Notes: generated by a model from the sequence alone, not told the origin. A stretch of 63,825 nucleotides of DNA, filler included, from Reclinomonas americana ATCC 50394 (GCA_048213135.1; 5 parts of 2 records of this genome joined end to end with filler, not necessarily neighbours in it); one strand, 5' to 3'. Numbered from the whole stretch's first letter, positions 246-19,422 are shown. Made by a program: numbers and translations.

Positions 246-3200
246 TCGTGCGCGACGCACCTCCTGGACCGACCTCAGCTGCCTCCTCCTCTGCTGGTGC
301 CTCTGCTGCCGCTGCTGCTCCGGCTCGACATCGACCGGTGTTTGGCGAGCCGCTTTCGTCGGTGCTGCAGAGGGATTATGGACCGGCGGCGAGTCGGGGA
401 TGGCTCATTCCGCGCTTCATTGTGGAGGTGGTGACGGCGTTGGAGAAAGGAGGAGGTGATTATGAGAAGGGGCAAGAGGTGGGCGAAGAGAACAGAGAGT
501 GGGAGAAAGCGGAAGGGAAGCGAGCGAAGAGGAGCGGAAGAGAACAAGGGATTGTGGCAAGGAGGGTAAAGAGACAGACGCGAGAGCGCATTCGTTTTCA
601 GCGACTGGCAGAGACAGGGAACGCGCGAGAGGATGAAGAAGAGGAGCAGAGGCGGATGAAGAGAAGAGAGACTGGGAGATATCGGGAGGGAGGTGAGCGA
701 AGAGAAGTGAAAGATAGAACGATGGATTGTGGCAAAGAGGGTATGAAAGAGAACGACACAGGAGCGCCTTCGTTTTCAGTGGAGGGCAGAGACAGGGAAC
801 GCGTGAGAGAATGAGGCATGAGAAAGATAAGAATCAGAGATGGACATCGCTGACAGTGTTTTGTCGTGTCTAGCTCTCTCTCCTCGCTGGTTTGCGTCTC
901 TCTCTCTCTCTCTTTGTCTCCTTCTCTCACACACACTAATTCTCTGCTACCCTCCGCTGAAAACGGAAGGCGCTCTGCTCTTGTGTCGGTCTCTTTCATG
1001 CCTCTTTGCCACGATCCATCGTTCTCTCATGCTACGAGGAATGATAGACGGATCGACAGCAGAAAGTGTTCATGTCGCGTCTTTGGATGGGCGTCTGCTC
1101 ACTCTCGCTGTTGGTTTGCGCGCAGAATGTTACTCATTCAGTCGTCGTGTCATTCTTTTCTCATCCCCATTTTCTCTTCCTTGCGCCTTCACTCCTTGTG
1201 ATTTCACCACAATGCACTTTTCTCTTCTTTCCTCCCCTTTCCCTCTCCCTCACCCTTCCCCTCCATCCCCAGGCCTCCGCACAGAGGGCATCTTCCGCGT
1301 GCCACCCGCCATTCGCGATCGGGATCGTCTCAAGGCCGAGATCGAGGACGGCCGTCCGGTGACCTTCCTCGGCCAAGATGAGCACACGCTGGCTGGCATC
1401 TTGAAACACTACGCCGCCTCGTTGCCGACGATGCTGCTCGGCGAGGGCACCGACGCTCGTGGCTGGATCGAGTGGGCCGACCGGTGGGACGCTGCGGCGC
1501 ACAATCCGTCGGTGCGGAACGGCTTGATGGAGGAGGCCCGCTCGCGCTTGCGCGGTATGCGACCACCGGAGCAGAGCCTGCTGGTTCTCATTTTGCACAC
1601 GGCACAACGCGTCGTCGACAATACGTACACCACGCGCCTGAATGTGGCCACCGTGTCGGGTTGTCTGCGCCAGTGCCTGCTCGATGTACCTCTCGACGAT
1701 GTCAGCCGACCACCCGGAGGTATCTCCTTGGTTCTCTTTTCTCTTCCCCCACCTTTACTCACTTCTCTTCTGTCGACAGACCTCGACTCGATGCGACACG
1801 CCGCGGCGGTCTCCAAGCGCGCTGCGCGCGTGGTGGAGATCCTCGTGGAGATGGAGCCGTATATTTTCCGAGAGGCAAATGCGCAGCTGGACGAGGTGTT
1901 GCGTGCGTGCTTTGGCGACGCGTACATGGAGCGCGTGCGCGAGAGGCGGGCGCAGATTGAGGAGCAAATGGTGCGCTCCGCGCAAGTTCGTGGTGGCTCC
2001 GAGGGCCTGGTGACGGTCGCCCAGAAGGGCACGCCCTCACGCGTGGCCAACGAGGTCGGTGGATCGTCGCCCGCCCCGGCCCCGCCAACTGCGTCGTCGA
2101 TGCAGGGCGAGGAAGAGTTGATAATGGAGGCTCCAGTGGTGAGTCGTGGATATTGTGCACCGTTGTGTTGCTGCCGCGAGGACTCACATTCTCGGCTGCA
2201 GTCGAGTGCGCAAATGGAGGAGTTGCGTGCGTTGGTGCAGCAGGTGCAGGACGAGCATGCGACGAGCTTGGAGCGGCTGACCACGGTGCTGGAGAGTGAA
2301 CGCGCCCATCACGCCGAGTCGGAGCGCCTGTTGCACGAGCGACTGACACTGGAGTTGGAGCACGTGCGACAGGAGACAGTGTCGGAGTTGGAGTTGTTGC
2401 GCACAGAGGTATGCAACAACAACAACAACGACGTCACCGACCTTGATTTCAATATTCCTCCTGACCCTCTTGCTTCGTGCACGAAAGATTCGCGACTCGG
2501 TTCGCCGACTGGAGGACGAGCAGCAGCGACAGGGCACGGCGCTCATGTCGCTGACTCGCGACGACACGGATGCCATGGAGCGATTGACGCGCAGTCAGGA
2601 TACACTGTCGGAGGAGATTCAGCTGTTGTGGCGGCGGTTGGGCGACGCCGAGGCCGCGGTGGTCACGCTCACTGAATCGCACCGGCGCACGCGCGATCTG
2701 AACGATCTCAAGATCTCCGCGCCACCGGGTGTGGACTACGAGGCGGCGCGAAAGCTGCAACAGCGGGTGGTATCGTTGGAGGATGAGGTCGAGCGCAGTC
2801 AGCTGGCCAACAAGCAGTTGCAGCATGAGGTGCGCTCGCTGCGCGAGCGAGCCGAGGATCGCGTGAATCGCGTCTCTCAGCTGCAGCAGACGCACCAGGC
2901 GTCCATGTCGGCCGGCAGTGCGGCCGGCAACGACGTCGAGATGCTGCAGTTCCCCAGTGCCAGCGTCAACAAGGCGGTGTCGCCTGTGGCAGTACCGGTG
3001 TCGGTGCGGTCACAGAGTGGCTCTGCCGGTGCGTCGCGCCCCACCACGCTGCCCGCGAGTCTGGCCAAGCCGGCCATGTACGCCACTGTCGATGCGGATC
3101 GCACGCTGGCCGGCCCGACGGCGGCGGCGACTCTTTATGTGCCCGCCCCGCCGCGACGGGCACCACCAACTGTGCCGTCGACTCGGGGGACTGGCGCACG

Positions 3201-7867: not shown

Positions 7868-10800
7868 ATGGCGTCCAGTGGCGTCCCTCCACACTCCTCC
7901 TCCTCCTCTTCCTCCTCCTCTGTGGATGGGACTGCCCTTCATCAACAACAGCAACAACAACAACAACACGGCTTTGTGAGCATGTTTAGTGACACACCGA
8001 CGATTCCCGATGTGCCGACGCCCTTTGCCGCTGTCGGGCCCATGAATCCGTTCCTGCATCCTCATCTACATCCTCATCTGCACCATCACATACCGTCGAG
8101 TGTGCATGTTGGTGAGGAAGAGAGAAGAGTGAGACAAGAGAGAAGAGAGAAGAGCAGAGAGAGAAGTGAGTTCTAAGCATTCAAACACACACGCACGCAC
8201 GCATGCTCCTCGTGCTCTCTCTCTCTCTCTCCCTCTCCCTCTGTGCGTGCAGTTCACTCCATGCATTCCATTTGTGGATGCTTGTTGACCTTCTCTCTAT
8301 CCAGGCACCTTTGATGACCCCATCCCTCCTGTCGACTCCTACGACTTGATGGACGCGTACCGCTTCACTGCGCCTGCGCCACCTGCGCTGTCACTGCCTC
8401 CACCCAACTTGCCACCACCACCACCACCACCACCACCTCCTGCACCTCCGTACGGTTACATTCCGCTGCCGGTGAAGCCGCCGCCGCCTCCTCCTCCGCC
8501 ACCACCACCACCGCCACCAGCAGCAGCAGCTGTCGCTCCGTCACCTGCTGGCGGCTTGAAACCGTCGGCGTCCACCTCGTCGCTGACCTCCAGCAGCTCG
8601 TCGGGTGATCTGGCCCGTCTGGCAGGTTCCTCTGCGGCTGCGGCTGCTGGTGGCACCGGTGGCGCGGCGCGTGAGCAGCTGTCCAATGCTCGTGAGCCGC
8701 CGTCACTAGCGGAGCGGGTGTGGCTGGTGGGAGCGTCGGGTGCCAAGGTGCAAGTGAAGACAGCCGACTCCACCGTGTGGACCTTGGATCGAGCCAATAG
8801 TGTTGCGTGGTGCTCTTTTTGTTTTGAGCGTGGCATCGACGACATCACACTCAATGCGTCTTTGGCCAGTGGAGTGATGCACAGACCGACTGGTTCTCCT
8901 TCCGGTTCGGCTCGGTGCGCCAGTTGGCGGCCGGCGATCGCAGCGGGGGCGATGGAACCATTCGACCGTCCCTCATCAAGACGCGGCACTACATGCTCCA
9001 ATTGTTTGTCACCAATCCAGTGCTGTCGCGTGTGCGGGTGTTGGCCCGAGTGGCCTTGCTGGAGGCCGGTACGGAGAAGCTGGTGCGCGTCCGTGACCCC
9101 AAGACCGGCGTCATTGACGATGGATTGGGACCGTTGCGTCTCCGCCACCACCACCACCGCAACCGCTTCCTTTGGGTGTTGTGCTGACTGTGCGCGCGCG
9201 TGGTGTTTTGGCGCTGCAGAGCCTCGTCGGCCGACATCAACATGGTCAGCCAGGGCGATTCACTCTTTGGCCAAACGGAAATACGATTCGCCTTCCACAG
9301 CAATGTGTACGACTCGATGCGTGTCACGGATGTGGATGGTGGAGCCAGCTCATCGTCCTCTGCCGCGACCACTGCCACCGCTGCATCCGCAAATGATTCC
9401 GACAGCGACTCTGCAAAGTTGGCCACTCGCAAATCACCCAAATCGAGCAAGTCGCCAAAGGCGACTGTCAGCAAGACGCCGTCGTTGCGTCCACGCACAC
9501 ACATATATGTATGCCATTCTTGCGTCACGTGCCGCTTACACCACAGTGCCGCAGAATGACGCCGCGCTTCAAACTGCGCGTCACGTACCATCTTCTGGGA
9601 ATGGACGACGAAGTGCAGGAGGTCCCGTTTGCGACTGTCTTGTCGCCAATCTTTGAAATCTTGGCGCGAGCTGGCAAGGGTGGTGAGGCACACCGCGAGG
9701 CTCTTGTCCCCAGCGTGCGTGCATGCAAACTCCTTGCTTTCCCCCACTTTCTCTCTCTTTCCCATTGCAGATCGTGTGTATGCTGGCTACGCGCGCGATG
9801 AGGCACAGTACGAGGAGCAGTCGGTTGTGGTGGAACGTGACACCGCCATGGATTCACCTCGGTTTGTGGAGATGCCGGCGACACAGTCGGCTCCGTCGAC
9901 TCGTGCCCCCACTCCATCGCTCCCTTCAGCGGTCTCCTCGCCAGAGGCTCCCAGACCGCCTGCCATCATGGTGCCGCCTGCCGCCTCGTCCTCTTCCTCT
10001 GCGCCACCCGCCAGTGCCGCGTATACTGCCGTTCCTCACGACAGTCAGCGACGAGCCGCAGACTTGTCAATTGAGAGTTTCGTGCAAGTGTATGTGTGCC
10101 CGCCCATTGTCTACTCGTTTGCTCATCGCCCGCGACTGGCAGTACCGCGGTCCATGTTGGCACCCAAGATGCCGGCACCGTCGCCGACGCTACACCTGGA
10201 ACTCGACGAATTGCTGCGCCTCTTCTGGCTCAATCCCACGTTTATCGAACAAACACACCGGCGCAATGTCCTGGTGGGCTTTGTCGATCGCGTGACGCAG
10301 CTGCAGGGTTTGTCACCATCTCTACGTCGACACAGTCCGTCTCTCCCTCTCCCTTACCGTCTTGTCCACAGACGACGATCAGCAGTACCTGCTGGCCCTG
10401 TTGCGTGCGCGACTGCCAAACCTGTTTGCGAGTGTGGCTTCGTACGGTTCGGCGCCTGGATTTGGTACTTCGATTGGTGGTGTTGGTGTTGGTGGCAGCA
10501 GCAGCAGCAGCAGTGGTGGTGTCGGTGGTGGTGGTGGTGGTGGTGGCGGCGGTGGCGGAGGAGGAGGAGGGTTAGGGGGAGGAGGAGGAGGAGGGGCTGG
10601 TATCGGAGGTGCAGGTGGCAGCGGTGGAGTGAGCGGTCTACATCTCATGTCGTCGCAACGAGGCGCCTCGTCGGGCGGTGCAGACGATTTCTCCCGACTG
10701 CTGATTGAGACGCCGCCGCCACCACCGCCGTCGTCGCAGACAGTGCCACCTCCACCTCCGCTAGCTCCACCGCTCCCATCTTCTCTGTCGTATGATGCAC

Positions 10801-11527
10801 CAATGCGGCAGCAACTCCTGCAGCCGTCTCTCCAACTGACGACGACACCGGTTCGCAATCCTCCGCTGACGCAGCGGCCGACAGATGCGCTGAACCCGCC
10901 GCGCGGTCAGGCGCCTCCATCGTTCTCCGGAACAACGCCGTCGTCATCGGCGGCCCATCCAGCGGGCGCACCATACGACGATGATCGGAGTGCTGGTGAA
11001 CAGTCCATGCTGAATGGCATGGAACGGTTTGTGTTGCTCACATTGCGCGCTCTCTCTCCCCGTATTTTGTCGCTGACATGGGTGGTGTCGGGGCAGGAAA
11101 CGATCGTATTCTTCCGCGGTGTCGTCGTACTTGGTAAATGTGGGCGACGACCTGGGCGACAGTATTGATGATGATGGTGCGTGATGATCCTCACGAACCG
11201 TGACAGCTTTTTGTCACCGCTTACCAATGGTGCTGCTTCGCAACAGACTGGATGCCGCCAACGAAGCGCGCGAACACTGCCGTTGGCATGAGTGGAGCGG
11301 GTGGCAGTGACCACCGATCACAGTGGCGAGAAAACGAGGGCGTGTTTGACACCATACCTGGCGCTGGTACCGGTCTGCACTTCCGATCGCAGCAACCGCC
11401 GCCAGCCGGCCAATCTTCTCCCCCGGCGCCGCCATTGCCTCCTCCTCCTACAGGCCCGTTTAGCTCGCCACCTTCTCGGCACTCCAATTCACCGGGAGGC
11501 ACACGACCGGAGAATAAGGGTGGTTGA
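7868..11527 (+). CDS. Uncharacterised protein, paralogue 1 of a putative DNA-binding family (Q/H/P/G low-complexity flanks)
   Basis: The multi-exon model stays in frame across about 9 GT-AG introns. Core FSFRFGSVR..KTRHYMLQL..RVALLEAGT..EIRFAFHSNVY..PRFKLRVTYH..SPIFEILAR is shared with the gene at 20468-24484. Basic patches RKRS and PTKR could be nuclear localisation signals. Confidence 0.7.
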
Positions 11528-11597: not shown

Positions 11598-14500
11598 TTA
11601 AAGGTACTCCTCCTCGTCGTCCTGCCGTGCCATGATGGCATCCAGCTCTCTGCGCACGACTCCACGCCAGGCCGCGTTCATGCGTGCCTTCACCTCTTCC
11701 CAACTGGAATCCAGCAGTGCAAGGTCCGTCACTCCCATCTCATCGCTCAGCAGCCACTCGACCAGGGTCGCGGCGATCTCGGGCTTCAAGTTCTTGTGCT
11801 TTGTGCACCAGACTGCGCGATACAGAGGCGCAACAGTGAATATGTGTGTGCCAAGACAGACAAAAACAAACGAAAACAGACAAACCATGGAATGCGTCGC
11901 GAACGGGCGTTGACGGCAGCAGCTGCAACTCCATTGGCACTGAGGCCTCGCTAGCCGAGTCGGGATCTCGGACGCGGCTAGGGCCTCGTACGCTGGCGGT
12001 CGGTGCAGGCGGCACAGGTGCCGATGGCGCCGGCGCCGGCGCCGTCCGAGCAGCAGACGACGCAAACATGAAGTTACCGGAGCCGAAAGGTGCGGAGGCG
12101 GCGGTGCTTGCGCTTCCAGCCGAACCGGCCGGGAGCCACGAGCTGCCCGACGCGCGCACTGGAGTGGTGGGCGAGTGCGACGTCACCGAGGCCACATCGC
12201 TCTGCGGTGGCGTCACGGTGCCGTTGGCGCTCGAGTGGGACGGCGTGGACGCAGGTGATGCGAAGCTTAGGTTAAAGGGCGGGCGTGCCCAGGCACCCGC
12301 CAAGCCGGCAGCACCCGCACCACCATACGGACTGGCGATCGCTGGTGCCGGCACCGGCGGCTGCGCGAACATTGGTGCAGATGGCTGCTGCGCGAACATG
12401 GGTGCAGATGTCTGCTGCGCGAACATGGGTGCAGATGGCTGCTGCGCGAACATGGGTGCAGATGGCTGCTGCGCGAACATGGGTGCAGACGGCGGCGCCT
12501 GCTCCGACTGGCGACGACCATCGCGAGCGCTGAGGGGTGCAGCGGCCATGTTCACTCGCGCACTCGGCAGCGACGCCTCCGAATCTGCGTCAGCGTCAAA
12601 CTCGGCACCGCGGCGACTGACTGCCGATGACGGTCGCTCCCCCTCCGCTCCCTGATGGCGGCTGACTGCCGACGATGGTCGCTGTCGGCGGGCACGCTTG
12701 CGAAGCTTGCCCTTCACCAAGGCCTCAGCAGCGGACAGTGCGTGCATGAGTGGCTCCAGAACCAGCACCTCCGCCCCCTTGTCGCGGTACGAGTTCGGTC
12801 CCGTGTACGACACAGTGGGATAGATGCTGGCGCGGGTGATGCCGCTCTGTTCGGCAAAGCGATCCAGCGTCTTGTCCACCAAATCACTCTCGAGAGCGCG
12901 GATGGCGTTCTTGTGTCGCAGACGCGGGTCGACCATGTCCATGCCGGCCAGAACCACCATCGGCTGCAGGCCCTGTTCGCCGAGAAGCTGGCCCAACTCA
13001 CGCAAAGCCCACATCTTGTCCTCCTGGCCCAGCATGTTCACGTGGCAGCACAGAATGACGCCATGCACACGGTGAGCGACGCCACCCTTCCACGGTGCCA
13101 CTTGGTCCAGATCGTCGTCGAAGCGGAAGCCGTCAGGCAGGGTGCCTTCCACCAGGGCGCTCGTCACGTCGTTCGAGTAGTTGGTGTTTGTCGCCTCTGC
13201 CGGTGGGCGGTAGACGCCTTCCGCGTTGCCGGGCTGGCGGATTGCGTCCGAGTGGTAGCCCTGGTGTGTGCACACAGCAGTGAGCGTCATGCATCCGGAA
13301 GTAGTGGGGCGCGCGCACAGAGCTCTCAACACTCACCCAGCAGTCAATCAGGTTAAGGTGGTCCGCCACGGCGTAGGTGACCTTCTTCTGTGTCACACCA
13401 GCATCCGACGGGCAGCTTGGCGCGACCGAGAAGAAGCGGTTGTTCAGCGCGCTGGCCATGGTGTTGATGGTGGCACTCTTGGCACCATTCTATCACACCA
13501 ACACATACGGAAAAGTCAGCAACGACGAGCGTCGTGTGGTGGGTGGTCACAGACGCACAACGCAACTCGGAGACCGACAAACAGAATGTTGTAGGCACCC
13601 ACTTCAGCCGGACAGTTGCGCTGGTACTCGTTGATGGTCGCCAGAATAGTGTCGCGCTCCGCCTCCAGGTTTTGTTGAGAGATGCGAGGTGCTGTGGCAT
13701 ACACACGTGAGTGACGAAGATGCACATGATCAACGTTGGATGAGAAACGCACCAGGGAGTGTGTAAAAATCGGTCTCGTCCGAGTACGAAGTCCGCGTGC
13801 CATCTTTACGAATGCCTTGCACGCGCAACGTCACGAGTTCATTGGCAGGCAGCTCGCTCACCCAGTACTCGTTGATGCTCACGTCGGCTTCACCCACAAT
13901 CTTCCAATGCACTGTGGCAGAAGCCGTGCACGACATGTGAGTGTGACTGCACGCGAAGGGGGTTTGCTTGAAAAGCGCAGTGACACAATACCTCGCATTT
14001 TGCTGTCGGGCCCACGGTTTCGCACTTTGCGCTCAATGTGGATCCTGTCGAGGTTGAAGTCCAGCAGCGACCCGCTCGGCATCGAGAACTTGAGCATCAG
14101 CTCAGTCGATGTGCGGTTTCCAGTGGTCACCGAGGGGCTGTGAACAGTGGAAGATGAGCAACGAGGTCGACAACGACAACGAGGGCACATACAAACACAC
14201 CATGCATTGCTGGAGACCGACGCCGGGCCAAACAGCTTCTCGACCTGCTCACGCGAGTCGACGAAGAATGTGTTGCGCTGCGAGGTGCCGAGCAGCTTGA
14301 TGTCTTCACGCGCAGCGTCGTCGCGAGGAGCGTGCAGGGCGAACACCACAGTCGGGATCTTGGCGTCGTGCAGCGAGCAGTTGGCCTCCATCTTGGCTTT
14401 CTGCGGGAATGGCAGTGCGCCTGCACGTGAAGTACTTGTTGTCAGATCGAGGAAAACAACGACGACAAGTCAGCTGTGCAAGAAGAGTGGACACCAACCT

Positions 14501-15023
14501 ACAGTCACCAACACCACGAGATTCTTCGGGTTTTGTCGTGCGCACGTGCCCAGGTGTTGCGCAGCGATCTTGATGGCGCTGGCTACACCGGCATTCTGGG
14601 TGGCCGCCACAGCCGCGTCGCCCTCCACGTCCAGAAGCGGTTCGGCATAGTCCTCGGCGCGCGCAGCAAAGTCAAACAGTGGTTGGCGATCGTTGGTGAG
14701 CACTTGGAAGTTCACCGCCGGCGTGTGCTGGCCATACAGCACCACCGAGAAGTTGACAGATCGCGGATCATCGCGATCCAGACGCGAATGGCTCAACAGC
14801 ATGCGCACAATGCTCTTGACGGTCAGCACCTCCCATGCCATCGGCAAGCACTGCAACAGGGAGCACACACAAGGAAATCGTCAGAGGCAGGCGAGAATGC
14901 AATCACACAGAGGAGAGAGTGGACTAGGAAGTAGAACGCAACGAGGACGATGTTGGTGCTCTCGCTGAGTGGCGGGAGCACAATGCTCTGCAGGCGTTGA
15001 TGTTCATCGCCGGCAATATCCAT
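11598..15023 (-). CDS. vWA-like + FN3 + IFI44-like GTPase (degenerate G1/G4) + C-terminal helical domain (copy A)
   Basis: Spliced: VNFSVVLYG/KNLVVLVTVG (vWA-like strands); VSELPANELVTLRVQGIRKDGTRTSYS (FN3); YNILFVGLR|NGAKSATINT, LIDCW|G, GTLPDGF, RVHGVILC, PMVVLAGMD, SGITRASIYPTVSY, EVLVLEPL (IFI44-family pattern). Confidence 0.8.
12361..12489 (-). repeat. 27-bp coding tandem repeat x5 (SAPMFAQQP)
   Basis: CTGCGCGAACATGGGTGCAGATGGCTG unit repeated about 5 times in frame in the linker of copy A. Confidence 0.95.
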
Positions 15024-15682
15024 GACAGTCAAAGTGGTTCTCTCTCCGAGGCAGAAGTGGAAATGTGTGGAAACAACCTGTCATCGACAGTGCCATGTCG
15101 GATCGCAGACATTTCCGGCTGACGACTGCCGGCACCTGTTGTCCGCTGGTCTCCCGGACACGTTGGCAGCCGCGGAGCTCGAGGGTGCCACAGGCGAGGG
15201 AGATGACGACTGCGCACTTGCAATTGAAACGATCATCGATCGCGATTATTTACGTACGCGCTGCGTGTTTTGAACCAAAACCCGCTTGCAGCTCACGCGC
15301 GCAGGCGAGCATGCCGTGAGAGGAGGAGGGAAAGGGCAAGGAAGGGGATACGTGGTAGCGGGGCACAGTCGCACGGTTGACTTCTGCCGGGTCGCGCAAT
15401 GATATCGTCAGCCGGGAATGCAATTGTTCGCGTCCTGTCGAAAGATGGAAATGCACGCGCGCACTGCGCGTACTGCCCGGCAAACTGAGGACGCGTACTC
15501 TTCTCCCTACTATCACTGCGTCGCACATTGACGCAAGTGAGCACACCTTGCGACTCTTGGTGTATTTGCATGTCCAGTCGTATTCGGATCAATTGCGAAC
15601 CCGGCATGTCCCGTCGCGCGGTACATTTCCTGTCACACAACTCGCTTTTTCTCTGTGTCTGCTGAGCACTTGCAACGCGAAC
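15024..15682. promoter_or_regulatory. Probable bidirectional promoter/5'UTR region between divergent paralogues
   Basis: 659 bp separate the inferred ATGs of two head-to-head paralogous genes. No specific motif recognised. Confidence 0.5.
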
Positions 15683-18600
15683 ATGGCTGCTCTCGAACCC
15701 GTTGTACCCGACTTTGTCGCCGCAGACGACTTTCGTGCACCGCCACCGGCGCCCCGGCTGTTGCCGGCGGCGCCTCTGGTCCTCACCGAGGCGGACCAGC
15801 TGCGACTGGCCCACAAGTTCACTGGACCGGCGTCGCAGACGGCTGATGTAGTGGTCGTTGCGTGCGATGTATAGAGAGAGGGATGAGGGAAGGCTGGGAG
15901 GAGGGGAGAGCGTTACTTCGTTGTCTTCTTGTCGGCTGTCCTACATTTGCTTTGTCTGCGTGGTGAGAGCAAGATCGGTGAAGTAAGAAGTAGGAGATGG
16001 AGGCAGGAGTCGTCTCTCTCTCTCTCTCTCTCCCTCCCTTCATCATGCTACTCTTATTCTTCTTCTCCGTGTGTGTGTGTTTGTTGTTGTCAGATTGTTG
16101 CCTTCTGCTCCTTCAACACTGCGTGGAGTGCAATCACTGCTCTCTCTCACACATACCTCTTGATCCTTCTTCTCTGTCTGTATGTGTGTGTGTTTGAGTG
16201 TGAGTGACTTTGTCTGTTTTTGACTGCGTTGCCACTTGTCTTTCTCATTCGTCTTCAATCACGCCTTTCATCTTTTTTGCTTGTGTGCATGTTGTCAGAG
16301 TGACATCTCTCCCCTTCTCTTCCCTCCTCTCCTACCTCTCTCATCCTCCCTCTCTCTCTCTCTCCGTCTCTCTATCGCGCCGTTCTTCTCATCCATGTTG
16401 TCAGATCTTGTCTTGTTGTCTGCTGCTTGCTCACTACTTCATCTCCACTCTTTCAGGCCTTCCCGAACGGCGCCAACACCAACCTCAAGTTGACCCAGCA
16501 CCTGTACCGCGTCCTCGCCACATGCCTCAACCTCGATGAATCGAATCGCGCCGGCACTGCGCTTGCCGTCGTGTACTACGGCAGTGAATTCCTGGATGGC
16601 GCCAAGGTGGAGACCGACCTGACGTCGAACTCGCGCTTGCACCTCGAGCGTGCTGCCGGTTGCGTCTTGATCAGCGAAGGATATATTCTTTCTTGCACTT
16701 TGTTTCTCACACCACGCGATTTACAGTCATGGAAAAGAACCCGGCAGCCACCTCCACGCACATCCACAAGGCCATTGACGTCAGCCACAATCACATGTTG
16801 GGCCAGGAGCCTGGTCGCCGCAAATTTGTTGTGCTGGTGGTCAATGGTACGCTGCACGACGCATGTCCTCCTTTTCCCCTGCGTGGTGATTGTGCTGCTC
16901 ACATCGCATTGCTTTGGCGTGAACAGGTGACATCCAGGACGCACAGGCTGCTGAGCGCCACGCTTCCAACCTTCACACTGCCCGAGTGACGACTGTCGCC
17001 TTTGTCCTCGGTGCTGATGCCTGCCACAGTGCTACAGTGGAGGAGGCACTGCGTCCAGTGATCTCCGCCGACTGCTTGTTCCGCGCAGAGCGACTTGAGG
17101 AAATCGAGTTTCTCTTTGGCAAGACCTCCACCGTCGTTCGCCCGGTGCCACAGATCGAGGCACACAATCGCACCTCGTCCAAGCTCGAGCTGAAGTTCAA
17201 GATGAGCTCCGATCAAAGTGCGGCTGGAGCCGTGAAGTCTTTTGAGCTGGAGCGCCGCATTCGTGGAAGTCCCATGGAGGTGGCATCGGCACCAGCTGCC
17301 GCCGGTGAGTATATTTTTTAGAGAGTTGATTGCTCTCTTGCGTCTGTGAGGCGCTGACGGGAATTCTCTCTCCAGATGACGCTTCTGGTTCTCAGGCTCG
17401 TGTGGGAGAACGTTGCGTCTCTACGGAAGTGATTCTCTGCCTCTTGTCTTTTGCTCACTGCATGACTACTTGAACAGCCAAGTGGGTGGAATTTGGTAGC
17501 GTGGCAGCCAACATCAACGAGCTGCACATTGAGCATCTCGAGCCCGACGAGCTGCTGGTGTTGCGTGCATGCGCCGTGTTTGAGGATGGCTCTCAGTCGC
17601 CATGGTCGCCAGTGACCGAGTACCGCACGCTGTCCAGTTGCGTGCGCTGCACAAGACCACTTGGTGACGTTTGCAACTTTGTGCTGATGGCGCAACTGAA
17701 ATGCAGGGCCCCGTTTGCGTGCTGAGGACTTGCCAGACTACCGGCAGGCCTTGGTGGCGCGCGTTGAGAACTTTGCCCGCGACCGCCATGCCATTGTGCC
17801 GTACAATGTGCTACTTTTCGGAAACATGGGTGCGGGCAAGTCATCCACGGTCATCACCACGATGAGCGCCATGAAGGGCAAGTTCGTGGCGGCCGCGACG
17901 GCACGCAAGCAAAACGGCACCGTCACGTTCACCAACTCTGACTATTCGGTGGTCGACGACAGTGTGTATCTGCATGATGTGTGGGTGCGTGCATTCGCTT
18001 GTGCTGTCTTGGTGATTGATAACCACTACTTTGTATTCACGCTTAGCTTGTGGTTGCAGGGCTACGACGCCAGGATGTACACCGAGGAAGTGACAGAAGA
18101 CCTTATCAATGGTACTCTCCCAGACGGGTTCGACTGCCGCCACAAGGGCAAACCTGCAGCGGCTGCAAGTGGCAGTCATGTGCGCGGCAGCAGTCGTCTT
18201 GTGCACGCCAATTCGGAGCCGGAGGACGATGTGCTCGAGAGCTGCTTGGCAACGCACATGCACTCAGCCATGGTCGTTTTTGAGGCTGACGCGTTGGACA
18301 ATGGCCTTAAGCTCTCCGAGCTGAAGGAGATGCTTGCGTTGCTCACTCGCCACGGTTAGCATGTTGTTTTTCGTGACTTCTTCATCTATGTTTCTTGCTC
18401 ACCTTCTGTTATCCACAGACTTGCAGTTTGTCGTTCTTTTGAGCAAGCTCGACATCATTGACCCGCGCCTGGCAGGCCACAACGCCGTACTGGCTCTGGA
18501 CAGTGACATTGTCGCCAAGGCCATGGAGGACTTTGCCGCGCGTGCCGGCATTCCTCTCGGCTGCGTGTACCCAGTTGTCAACTTCAGTGGTCCCAACGCG

Positions 18601-19422
18601 TATCCCGACCTCGGCAGCGAGGTGCTCGTGCTCGAGGCACTGCTGGGTGCACTGGAGCTGGCGGACGGCTACTGCGTCACTCAGCGTCGTGCTGCGGCGG
18701 CCAAGCTGGTTCACGGCCACGTTCGAGATGCCGACACGCAGTTTGCATTGAACACTGTGCGCAACAGAGGCTTTGATGTGCCCGCCGCATTGGTGGAGGC
18801 TGCACAGCAGACGGACGACTTGCGAGCGCTGGTGAATCACCTGGTGCGCGAGTGCGGCTACGACGCGGCCATGAAGGCTGTGTTCGATGTGCCCAAGGCG
18901 GATGAGCAGGAGAGGGTGGTGGCTGCGCCCATGCCAGCAGCGTCTGTTCCGTACCAGCCCAACGTTGCTGCCGGTGGTGGGTGGAACGCCAGGTCTTTTG
19001 CCGCACCGGCACCGGTACCGTCGTATGTGCCGCCGTATGCCGGCGGCTACTCGGCTCCAGTCAAGCCTGGCAACACGACTCCTTTGTCGGTGCCGAATTT
19101 GGACGACGTCGACGGCTTCGCGCCTGAGAGCGATGTCGGCGGCTGGCTGGGCAGTTGCGTTTGGCTACTGTATCACCATGTCACTCCCATGCGACATATA
19201 TGCTCACTTGTGTCTTGCACGTCAGCTCTGTGCGACCGGAACAGGCACTGGAACCGGGATAGTGTCGACGAACTGGTGGAGTGGCTGCTTGAGGAGAACA
19301 TCTCCTCGCTGCAGGCACTGTACCGGCAATGGTCGACGGTAATGAGCAACGGCCCTACCGTGGATCGTTCCGTGTGCCAGAGCATTTACGGAGAGCTGGA
19401 CGCCATCATCACCATGTCGTGA
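15683..19422 (+). CDS. vWA-like + FN3 + IFI44-like GTPase (intact) + UBA-like + C-terminal helical domain (copy B)
   Basis: ALAVVYYG/RKFVVLVVNG (vWA-like); IEHLEPDELLVLRACAVFEDGSQSPWS (FN3); YNVLLFGNMGAGKSS (Walker A, 17820-17843), LHDVW|G, LINGTLPDGF, VVLLSKLD, AGIPLGCVYPVVNF, EVLVLEAL; NRGFDVPAALVEAAQQTDDLRALVNHL (UBA-like). Confidence 0.85.

Follow-up and report, generated by a model that had tools for sequence, protein, structure and literature searches.

In a 63,825-nucleotide stretch of DNA from Reclinomonas americana ATCC 50394 (GCA_048213135.1; five parts of two records joined end to end with filler, below called the window), positions 11598-19422 carry two real, intact and divergently transcribed genes, here named A and B, which are deeply diverged paralogues with a similarity far beyond chance. 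Their products combine, in the same order, a vWA-like domain, an FN3 domain, a GTPase domain (G domain), a linker and a small helical module, an order put forward in the original prediction and borne out in both proteins by local hhalign comparisons, residue composition and AlphaFold2 (AF2) modelling. The explanation that we tentatively prefer, taking this anatomy and a proposed mechanism together, is that of a paired multidomain GTPase: A and B would be cytosolic GTPases transcribed divergently from a shared region of 659 bp. We give this explanation as a whole a probability of about 40%.

11598-15023, minus strand: coding region of gene A, 9 exons, 941 aa (GT-AG model, open frame)
15023-14943, 14850-14499, 14420-14201, 14137-13992, 13911-13753, 13691-13567, 13489-13337, 13260-11886 and 11812-11598, minus strand: exons of gene A
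15683-19422, plus strand: coding region of gene B, 9 exons, 845 aa (GT-AG model, open frame)
15683-15856, 16457-16658, 16727-16846, 16927-17304, 17478-17636, 17707-17984, 18060-18354, 18419-19153 and 19226-19422, plus strand: exons of gene B

The kinship of the two genes is evident from direct comparison. A blastp alignment of the proteins covers 607 aa at 27.7% identity (E 1.7e-58), with the C-terminal module as a second segment at E 0.001, and MAFFT aligns 769 positions, 244 of which are identical. Several common intron positions had been predicted, and indeed 6/8 agree in position and phase (A27/0=B58/0, A144/1=B165/1, A266/1~B291/1, A319/1=B344/1, A412/0=B437/0 and A870/1=B780/1). The gap from ATG to ATG is 659 bp, which confirms the head-to-head arrangement of diverged paralogues about 660 bp apart that had been proposed. 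Identity between A and B is 26% for the vWA-like domain, 33% for FN3, 37% for the G domain and 31% for the C-terminal module, and such low identity within each domain points to an old duplication. Judging from these alignments, A and B are most readily understood as ancient paralogues that arose by inverted duplication.

The gene models were built by hand from stop-to-stop open reading frames (ORFs) and the sequence, and the domain tests reported below were run as local scripts on the spliced proteins. All 16 introns of the two genes have GT-AG boundaries, and 14 of them are 61-92 nt long, with one of 173 nt and one of 600 nt. The GC content at third codon positions (GC3) of the exons is 0.74 in A and 0.73 in B, compared with an intron GC of 0.52 and 0.48, respectively. 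Every junction of the gene A model is backed by its paralogy to B. The first ATG of gene A lies 21 codons downstream of an in-frame stop and the N-terminus of A aligns with B from residue 38; an extra upstream exon of gene A might exist. By eye, with no predictor used, a signal peptide was not evident at the N-terminus of either protein.

The introns have some features of their own. The hexamer GTTGCG starts 6/16 of them (donors at 14942, 13566, 15857, 16659, 17637 and 19154), and it accounts for 74/7186 GT-hexamers of the window, where it ranks 17 of 253; as a 5' splice-site consensus it is unusual, and perhaps typical of the organism. Three introns, 14138-14200 on the minus strand and 17985-18059 and 19154-19225 on the plus strand, have a length divisible by three and contain no stop codon in the frame of the exons, such that their retention would add 21, 25 and 24 residues in frame, respectively. 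The first intron of B (15857-16456, plus strand) measures 600 nt compared with 64-173 nt for the other introns of that gene, and contains many low-complexity repeats of CT and GT.

The motifs of the G domain can be placed as follows.

12703-13691, minus strand: helix before the P-loop and G domain of A, aa 320-598 (sequence; hhalign, co-linear to Dynamin_N and MMR_HSR1; Atlas neighbours)
13575-13567 + 13489-13475, minus strand: Walker A of A, GLR-NGAKS, split by an intron, with Ala in place of the last Gly before Lys
13345-13337 + 13260-13258, minus strand: G3 of A, DCW-G, split by an intron
12948-12937, minus strand: G4 of A, AGMD, without Lys
17707-18690, plus strand: helix before the P-loop and G domain of B, aa 345-626 (sequence; hhalign, B alone against Dynamin_N P 8.3e-5)
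17820-17843, plus strand: Walker A of B, GNMGAGKS, canonical
17976-17984 + 18060-18062, plus strand: G3 of B, DVW-G, split by an intron
18442-18453, plus strand: G4 of B, SKLD, near-canonical

Domains were compared by hhalign, each query being a two-row profile made from spliced A and B and each template an alignment of bacterial members of a Pfam domain family; secondary structure was not scored. For the G domain, five P-loop templates were collected from 5 cyanobacterial genomes (MMR_HSR1, 30 sequences; Dynamin_N, 19; Ras, 13; AAA, 20; DUF815, 4); templates for IRG (PF05049) and GBP (PF02263) were absent from these genomes, and their AIG1 matches were weak look-alikes of the Era/EngA type and were excluded. 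Dynamin_N gave the best fit of the five, at a probability of 90.6% in local mode (177 columns, P 1.3e-6) and 94.1% in global mode (198 columns, P 2.3e-8). Alignment to MMR_HSR1 was co-linear as well, with 172-178 columns spanning G1 to G5 (P 3.7e-5 to 7.1e-5), and Ras aligned locally over 54 columns at a probability of 68.8%. Reversed controls gave P of at least 0.18, and 30 column shuffles scored at most 23.1. In Pfam, no family passed its threshold on A or B; GTPase families, Dynamin_N included, and SAM did not match any exon piece of A or B, and an AF2 model of B 17709-18353, read through an in-frame intron, had a mean predicted local distance difference test score (pLDDT) of 34.2.

Could the NTPase instead be an ATPase of the AAA+/DUF815 type? 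Pfam DUF815 matches the P-loop exon of B (17709-17984) with E 4.8e-5 and 23.1 bits, just under the cut-off of 23.8, the local hhalign probability for DUF815 is 78.6%, and some of the clusters returned by Atlas, which ranks protein-language-model neighbours, carry DUF815 in 12-59% of their members. However, the hhalign matches to DUF815 and AAA span 43 and 34 columns round the P-loop and collapse when aligned globally (P 0.96 and 0.65), whereas the GTPase templates are co-linear through G1, G3, G4 and G5, and both DVWG and SKLD stand at the expected places in B. Because the GTPase fit is co-linear over the full length and the AAA/DUF815 fit is confined to the P-loop, we class the domain, on these alignments, as a GTPase of the TRAFAC class and consider an AAA+/DUF815-type ATPase extremely improbable.

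The motifs also suggest how labour might be divided between the two proteins. B, with its canonical GNMGAGKS and its DVWG and SKLD, would be the subunit that binds and hydrolyses GTP, while GLRNGAKS and AGMD would make A a nucleotide-impaired partner with a regulatory or sensor role. The residue that follows DxxG is Tyr in both proteins (DVWG-Y in B, DCWG-Y in A), and takes the place of a catalytic Gln, as in GTPases of the dynamin, GBP and IFI44 types; the G domain may work as a nucleotide-dependent dimerising switch. The Ala at the last P-loop Gly and the missing G4 Lys would also suit a gene A that is a decaying copy, either a pseudogene or a non-functional pseudo-GTPase, with B alone functional. 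Consistent with decay, all three domain tests scored A alone lower than B alone (vWA, P 0.022 vs 1.1e-4; FN3, 1.9e-3 vs 1.0e-4; Dynamin_N, 8.1e-3 vs 8.3e-5). But over 3.4 kb all 9 exons of A are open and its 8 GT-AG introns are intact, its GC3 is as high as that of B, and B shares with it a well-conserved C-terminal module and G5 region. With nine intact exons and a high GC3, A looks like a diverged partner and not like a pseudogene, and we regard its decay as very unlikely.

The N-terminal head of each protein could be assigned as follows.

14206-14969, minus strand: vWA-like domain of A, aa 19-216 (hhalign of the A+B profile)
13753-14205, minus strand: FN3 domain of A, aa 217-319, split by an intron (hhalign)
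15824-17144, plus strand: vWA-like domain of B, about aa 48-238 (hhalign; B alone against 46 VWA domains P 1.1e-4)
17145-17636, plus strand: FN3 domain of B, aa 239-344, split by the 173-nt intron (hhalign; B alone P 1.0e-4)

Here the templates were 16 cyanobacterial and 30 Bacillota VWA domains, and 30 fn3 domains from Bacillota (150 genomes searched), fn3 not being present in the 5 cyanobacterial genomes. For FN3, the A+B profile matched the 30 fn3 domains with a probability of 94.0% (P 1.4e-7, 81 columns) and, globally, 91% over 91 columns, while the reversed profile gave P 0.33, other templates gave P of at least 0.15, and the observed score was 41.5, with 11.2 the highest of 30 column shuffles. 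Pfam fn3 had no match on the exon pieces of A and B. For the vWA-like domain, the A+B profile matched the 46 bacterial VWA domains with a probability of 78% (P 1.8e-5 over 149 columns locally; P 2.1e-6 over 176 columns globally). The observed scores of 38.3 (local) and 34.1 (global) compare with column-shuffle maxima of 18.7 and 11.7 (n=40), and with 24.2 and 21.8 for the reversed query, whose alignments are confined to 16-32 columns. When the 16-sequence template was used by itself, the reversed query nearly equalled the forward one (27.5 and 28.4), and support from these alignments for a vWA alpha/beta fold in A and B is for that reason graded as moderate. Pfam VWA reached sub-threshold E-values of 0.067 and 0.12, on the second exon of A only, and a PDB profile search gave 0 matches.

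In the vWA alignment the hallmark elements occur in order, and the metal-site residues are replaced in both proteins: the DxSxS position reads P-M-A-gap in A and P-N-G-A-N in B, and the TDG position reads TVG in A and VNG in B. On this alignment, the metal-ion-dependent adhesion site (MIDAS) is lost in both vWA-like domains. In the paired-GTPase explanation, the vWA and FN3 head would bind a protein ligand without a metal ion.

Downstream of the G domain, the two proteins continue as follows.

11886-12702, minus strand: Ala/Ser/Pro-rich linker of A, 272 aa (composition: A 56, S 44 and P 41 of 272 residues)
12356-12493, minus strand: tandem repeat within the linker of A, 27-nt unit x 5.1, encoding SAPMFAQQP units (95% matches)
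18691-18915, plus strand: predicted helical insert of 75 aa after the G domain, in B only (A-B pairwise alignment)
18916-19153, plus strand: Ala/Val/Pro-rich linker of B, shorter than that of A (composition)
11601-11812, minus strand: C-terminal helical module of A, aa 871-941 (last exon; 31% identical to B)
19226-19419, plus strand: C-terminal helical module of B, aa 782-845 (last exon)

The place of the 75-aa insert of B is taken by low-complexity sequence in A. Pfam offered Volactin only for this insert, sub-threshold at E 0.004; by eye, its pattern recalls a three-helix unit of the UBA type. The C-terminal modules have LVEWLL and ELDAI in common, and AF2 on the A+B alignment gave a mean pLDDT of 72.1 with helices at 10-20, 30-35, 37-43 and 46-69. 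The module is therefore modelled as a conserved four-helix unit of 64-70 aa. A Foldseek search of the model against the PDB returned 0 matches at E <= 0.001, the best being a SAM domain (E 6.7, probability 0.04), and VIA-align found 0/48,161 chains at Z >= 5. A SAM-like reading of the module, which we had considered, is unsupported by either search. Tethered by the linker, the module could serve to recruit downstream factors.

The region between the genes holds a possible regulatory link between them.

15024-15682, no strand: region between the start codons, putative bidirectional promoter and 5' untranslated regions (gene-model coordinates)
15110-15125, minus strand: 16-nt element TCGTCAGCCGGAAATG, sense, 87-102 nt upstream of the ATG of A (inverted pair)
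15405-15420, plus strand: 16-nt element TCGTCAGCCGGGAATG, sense, 263-278 nt upstream of the ATG of B (inverted pair)

The two elements form an inverted pair with the consensus TCGTCAGCCGG[A/G]AATG, are 94% complementary, and are the sole such pair in the 659-bp region. An inverted 16-mer pair was found in 0/200 dinucleotide shuffles of the 659 bp. At <=2 mismatches the 16-mer has only 2 matches in the 63.8-kb window, with 0.07 expected, and at least 2 matches occurred in 1/100 shuffles, for a pattern that was itself derived from the data. As a sequence feature, the shared 16-mer is one hint of co-regulation, and in the proposed mechanism it would co-regulate A and B. The same region holds a direct repeat, CTG[C/A]GCACTTGCAA, at 15210-15223 and 15662-15675 on the plus strand, the second copy lying 8-21 nt upstream of the ATG of B; this repeat may be due to chance.

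A different account of the locus would be that A and B are independent, subfunctionalised paralogues that act separately, for example as homodimers, and that their head-to-head position is a relic of the inverted duplication. With a per-region identity of only 26-37% their functions may have drifted apart, and their architectures have diverged as well, the 75-aa insert occurring only in B and the 272-aa, repeat-bearing linker only in A. Still, a sense-oriented 16-mer upstream of both ATGs is unlikely to arise by chance, as the shuffles indicate, and A and B are still adjacent despite their deep divergence. Moreover, the nucleotide motifs are lost in A only, which is the pattern of active and inactive partner GTPases such as IRG GKS/GMS and the septin groups. 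We consider separate action of the two proteins rather unlikely, although it is the alternative that we take most seriously.

The idea of a paired module has precedents in other systems. In the head-to-head plant pairs of nucleotide-binding leucine-rich repeat receptors (NLRs), RGA4/RGA5 and RRS1/RPS4, and in IRG GKS/GMS pairs, one member has a non-canonical nucleotide-binding motif. These are divergently arranged or functionally paired paralogous NTPases; A and B are similar in being divergently arranged, one of them with a non-canonical motif, and they have the layout of such a module, adjacent divergent paralogues with a putative shared regulatory region, in the form of a 659-bp gap with one 16-mer per gene. 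The NTPase classes, however, are unrelated (STAND NB-ARC in NLRs, IRG in the others), and the analogy is one of logic only. By this analogy, a paired immune module is an attractive hypothesis, with one regulatory and one structural hint in its favour. A more demanding version would have A and B as an obligate asymmetric heterodimer of a catalytic B and a pseudo-GTPase A, forming a cytosolic switch for recognition and defence in a unicellular eukaryote that is a deep-branching, vWA/FN3-headed relative of the animal IFI44 proteins and whose sensor/partner pairing arose independently of that of plant NLRs; we look on this version, with all its parts, as a long shot.

Interferon strongly induces the IFI44 and IFI44L genes, and the biochemistry of their products is still unclear. 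The original prediction had identified the GTPase of A and B as IFI44-like, and the support for this claim is a proximity among protein-language-model neighbours. Atlas was queried with non-overlapping parts of the G domain, the N-terminal part from B (17709-18353) and the C-terminal part from A (12706-13260), and IFI44-type proteins were the nearest named neighbours of both. With the part from B, 'interferon-induced protein 44-like' came at rank 2 with a score of 0.93 (193/256 features shared), and with the part from A, IFI44-like came at rank 6 with 0.85, below a top three of chordate clusters (0.92-0.93) that were unnamed or labelled 'G domain', all of these scores being leads only, with shuffled proteins scoring 0.9 in 4 to 10/100 cases. 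The IFI44-like family set made up 15/30 matches of the part from B; ranks 1 and 3 were plant clusters partly with DUF815, and a dynamin-family cluster stood at rank 27 with 0.87. No alignment statistic supports the link, and among the five templates compared the best fit is to Dynamin_N.

Motifs allow a further comparison. As given in the accessible part of a study of the human proteins (Busse et al., bioRxiv 10.1101/2020.02.24.963900), IFI44 and IFI44L have a G1 of the form GXXXXGKS and, as in dynamin-like GTPases, a hydrophobic residue after DxxG, and G4 is present in IFI44L and incomplete in IFI44. B has both the GxxxxGKS form of G1 and the hydrophobic residue after DxxG, and A has the latter together with a G1 that reads GLRNGAKS; as in IFI44L vs IFI44, G4 is complete in one paralogue and incomplete in the other. 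Since the same source places a hydrophobic residue after DxxG in IFI44/IFI44L, the best fit to Dynamin_N would be compatible with an IFI44-type assignment. Like IFI44 and IFI44L, A and B are probably cytosolic, as far as can be told from their sequences. In contrast to them, A and B have no TLDc domain, carry a vWA-like and an FN3 domain at the N-terminus, add a long disordered linker and a C-terminal helical module, show no alignment-based similarity in sequence searches, and are encoded head to head. An equation of paraseptin with IFI44 was considered and dropped, as the accessible part of PMC8640212 does not make it.

Several observations weigh against the paired-GTPase explanation and its link to IFI44. 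The IFI44 kinship of the G domain, drawn from embedding neighbours with no E-value, is plausible but unproven. Pfam scans covering every exon and ORF piece of the two genes, at E-values of up to 10, did not detect TLDc. A search of B 17709-18353, a query that contains a 25-aa in-frame intron, against 1,835,955,588 representative proteins gave 0 matches at E<=0.001; a word-index protein search gave none at E<=0.001 and none at E<=10 among 1171 candidates (291-928 aa); and an A+B profile search gave none at E<=10 among the 8000 candidates scored (325-2000 aa). The query profiles used with hhalign consist of two sequences only and the templates are bacterial, and the middle part of the Dynamin_N alignment, including G3, is of low confidence. 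The degenerate motifs of A could reflect relaxed constraint and not a regulatory role. Finally, the accessible part of the work on human IFI44 reports that its antiviral effect persists after deletion of G1 (bioRxiv 10.1101/2020.02.24.963900), and the GTPase logic is thus uncertain even in the comparator. Other searches were also negative: PDB sequence searches yielded nothing useful, with only weak matches to GTPase P-loops (FtsY, E 0.0078; EngB, 0.063), an NCBIfam scan of A and B yielded nothing, and related loci were not found in metagenome, viral and genome contigs. At the level of titles and abstracts, we found no literature on protist IFI44-type GTPases or on a vWA-FN3-GTPase design, and the arrangement of a vWA-like domain without MIDAS, FN3, GTPase, linker and helical module is undescribed.

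The resemblance to IFI44 might also hold at the level of the superfamily only, with A and B being housekeeping dynamin-like GTPases that remodel membranes or the cytoskeleton or take part in trafficking, with no part in defence. Bacterial Dynamin_N was the best of the five P-loop templates at a probability of 94%, over the full length, and A and B share with the dynamin superfamily a large G domain without a catalytic Gln after DxxG. Only two copies are present in 63.8 kb, a further copy being found nowhere in the window by tblastn, and the local expansion typical of immune families is not seen. Nor do the neighbours stand out: RhoGAP, WD40 and Ank are signalling genes of an ordinary kind.

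831-2675, plus strand: RhoGAP match (ORF, Pfam E 2e-13)
39872-41086, minus strand: WD40 match (ORF, E 1e-33)
49310-50680, minus strand: match to an isocitrate/isopropylmalate dehydrogenase exon (ORF, E 3.5e-9)
51938-54091, plus strand: match to ankyrin repeats (ORF, E 7e-27)

However, the G domain of A and B is followed by a disordered linker and not by a helical bundle resembling a stalk, middle domain or GTPase effector domain (GED), nor by a paddle. Pfam Dynamin_N is unmatched on the exons, the placement of G3 is uncertain, and in Atlas the IFI44-like clusters stand above the dynamin-family cluster. Extreme divergence, with no orthologue in 1.84 billion representatives, would be unusual for housekeeping genes as well. 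We judge a housekeeping role unlikely, more so than separate action of the two paralogues.

The window as a whole is draft eukaryotic nuclear sequence with 16 runs of N, and the GC content around the locus is about 55-63%. None of the RhoGAP, WD40, ankyrin and dehydrogenase genes has an obvious functional tie to the A/B pair, and all are of an ordinary eukaryotic kind. Just past the 3' end of gene A, ORFs at 9560-11168 on the plus strand contain long homopolymer runs of Gly, Pro and Gln and stretches rich in Trp and Arg; they had no Pfam match.

If the paired-GTPase explanation holds, a role in cell-autonomous defence would be plausible by analogy only, namely with IFI44, GBP, IRG and GIMAP proteins and with paired plant NLRs, and such a role is speculative. 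At the level of 15 billion proteins, the sequences of A and B are orphans. Should they be true relatives of IFI44, the IFI44-type G domain would be older than animals and would originally have been joined to vWA/FN3 heads and not to TLDc, and the pair would offer a tractable microbial system for the function of this type of GTPase. If the link to IFI44 exists at the superfamily level only, the locus would still present a multidomain dynamin-like GTPase design that has not been described. Under the reading of A as the degenerate and B as the active member, a pair of this kind at one locus would provide a natural test of asymmetric GTPase dimers.

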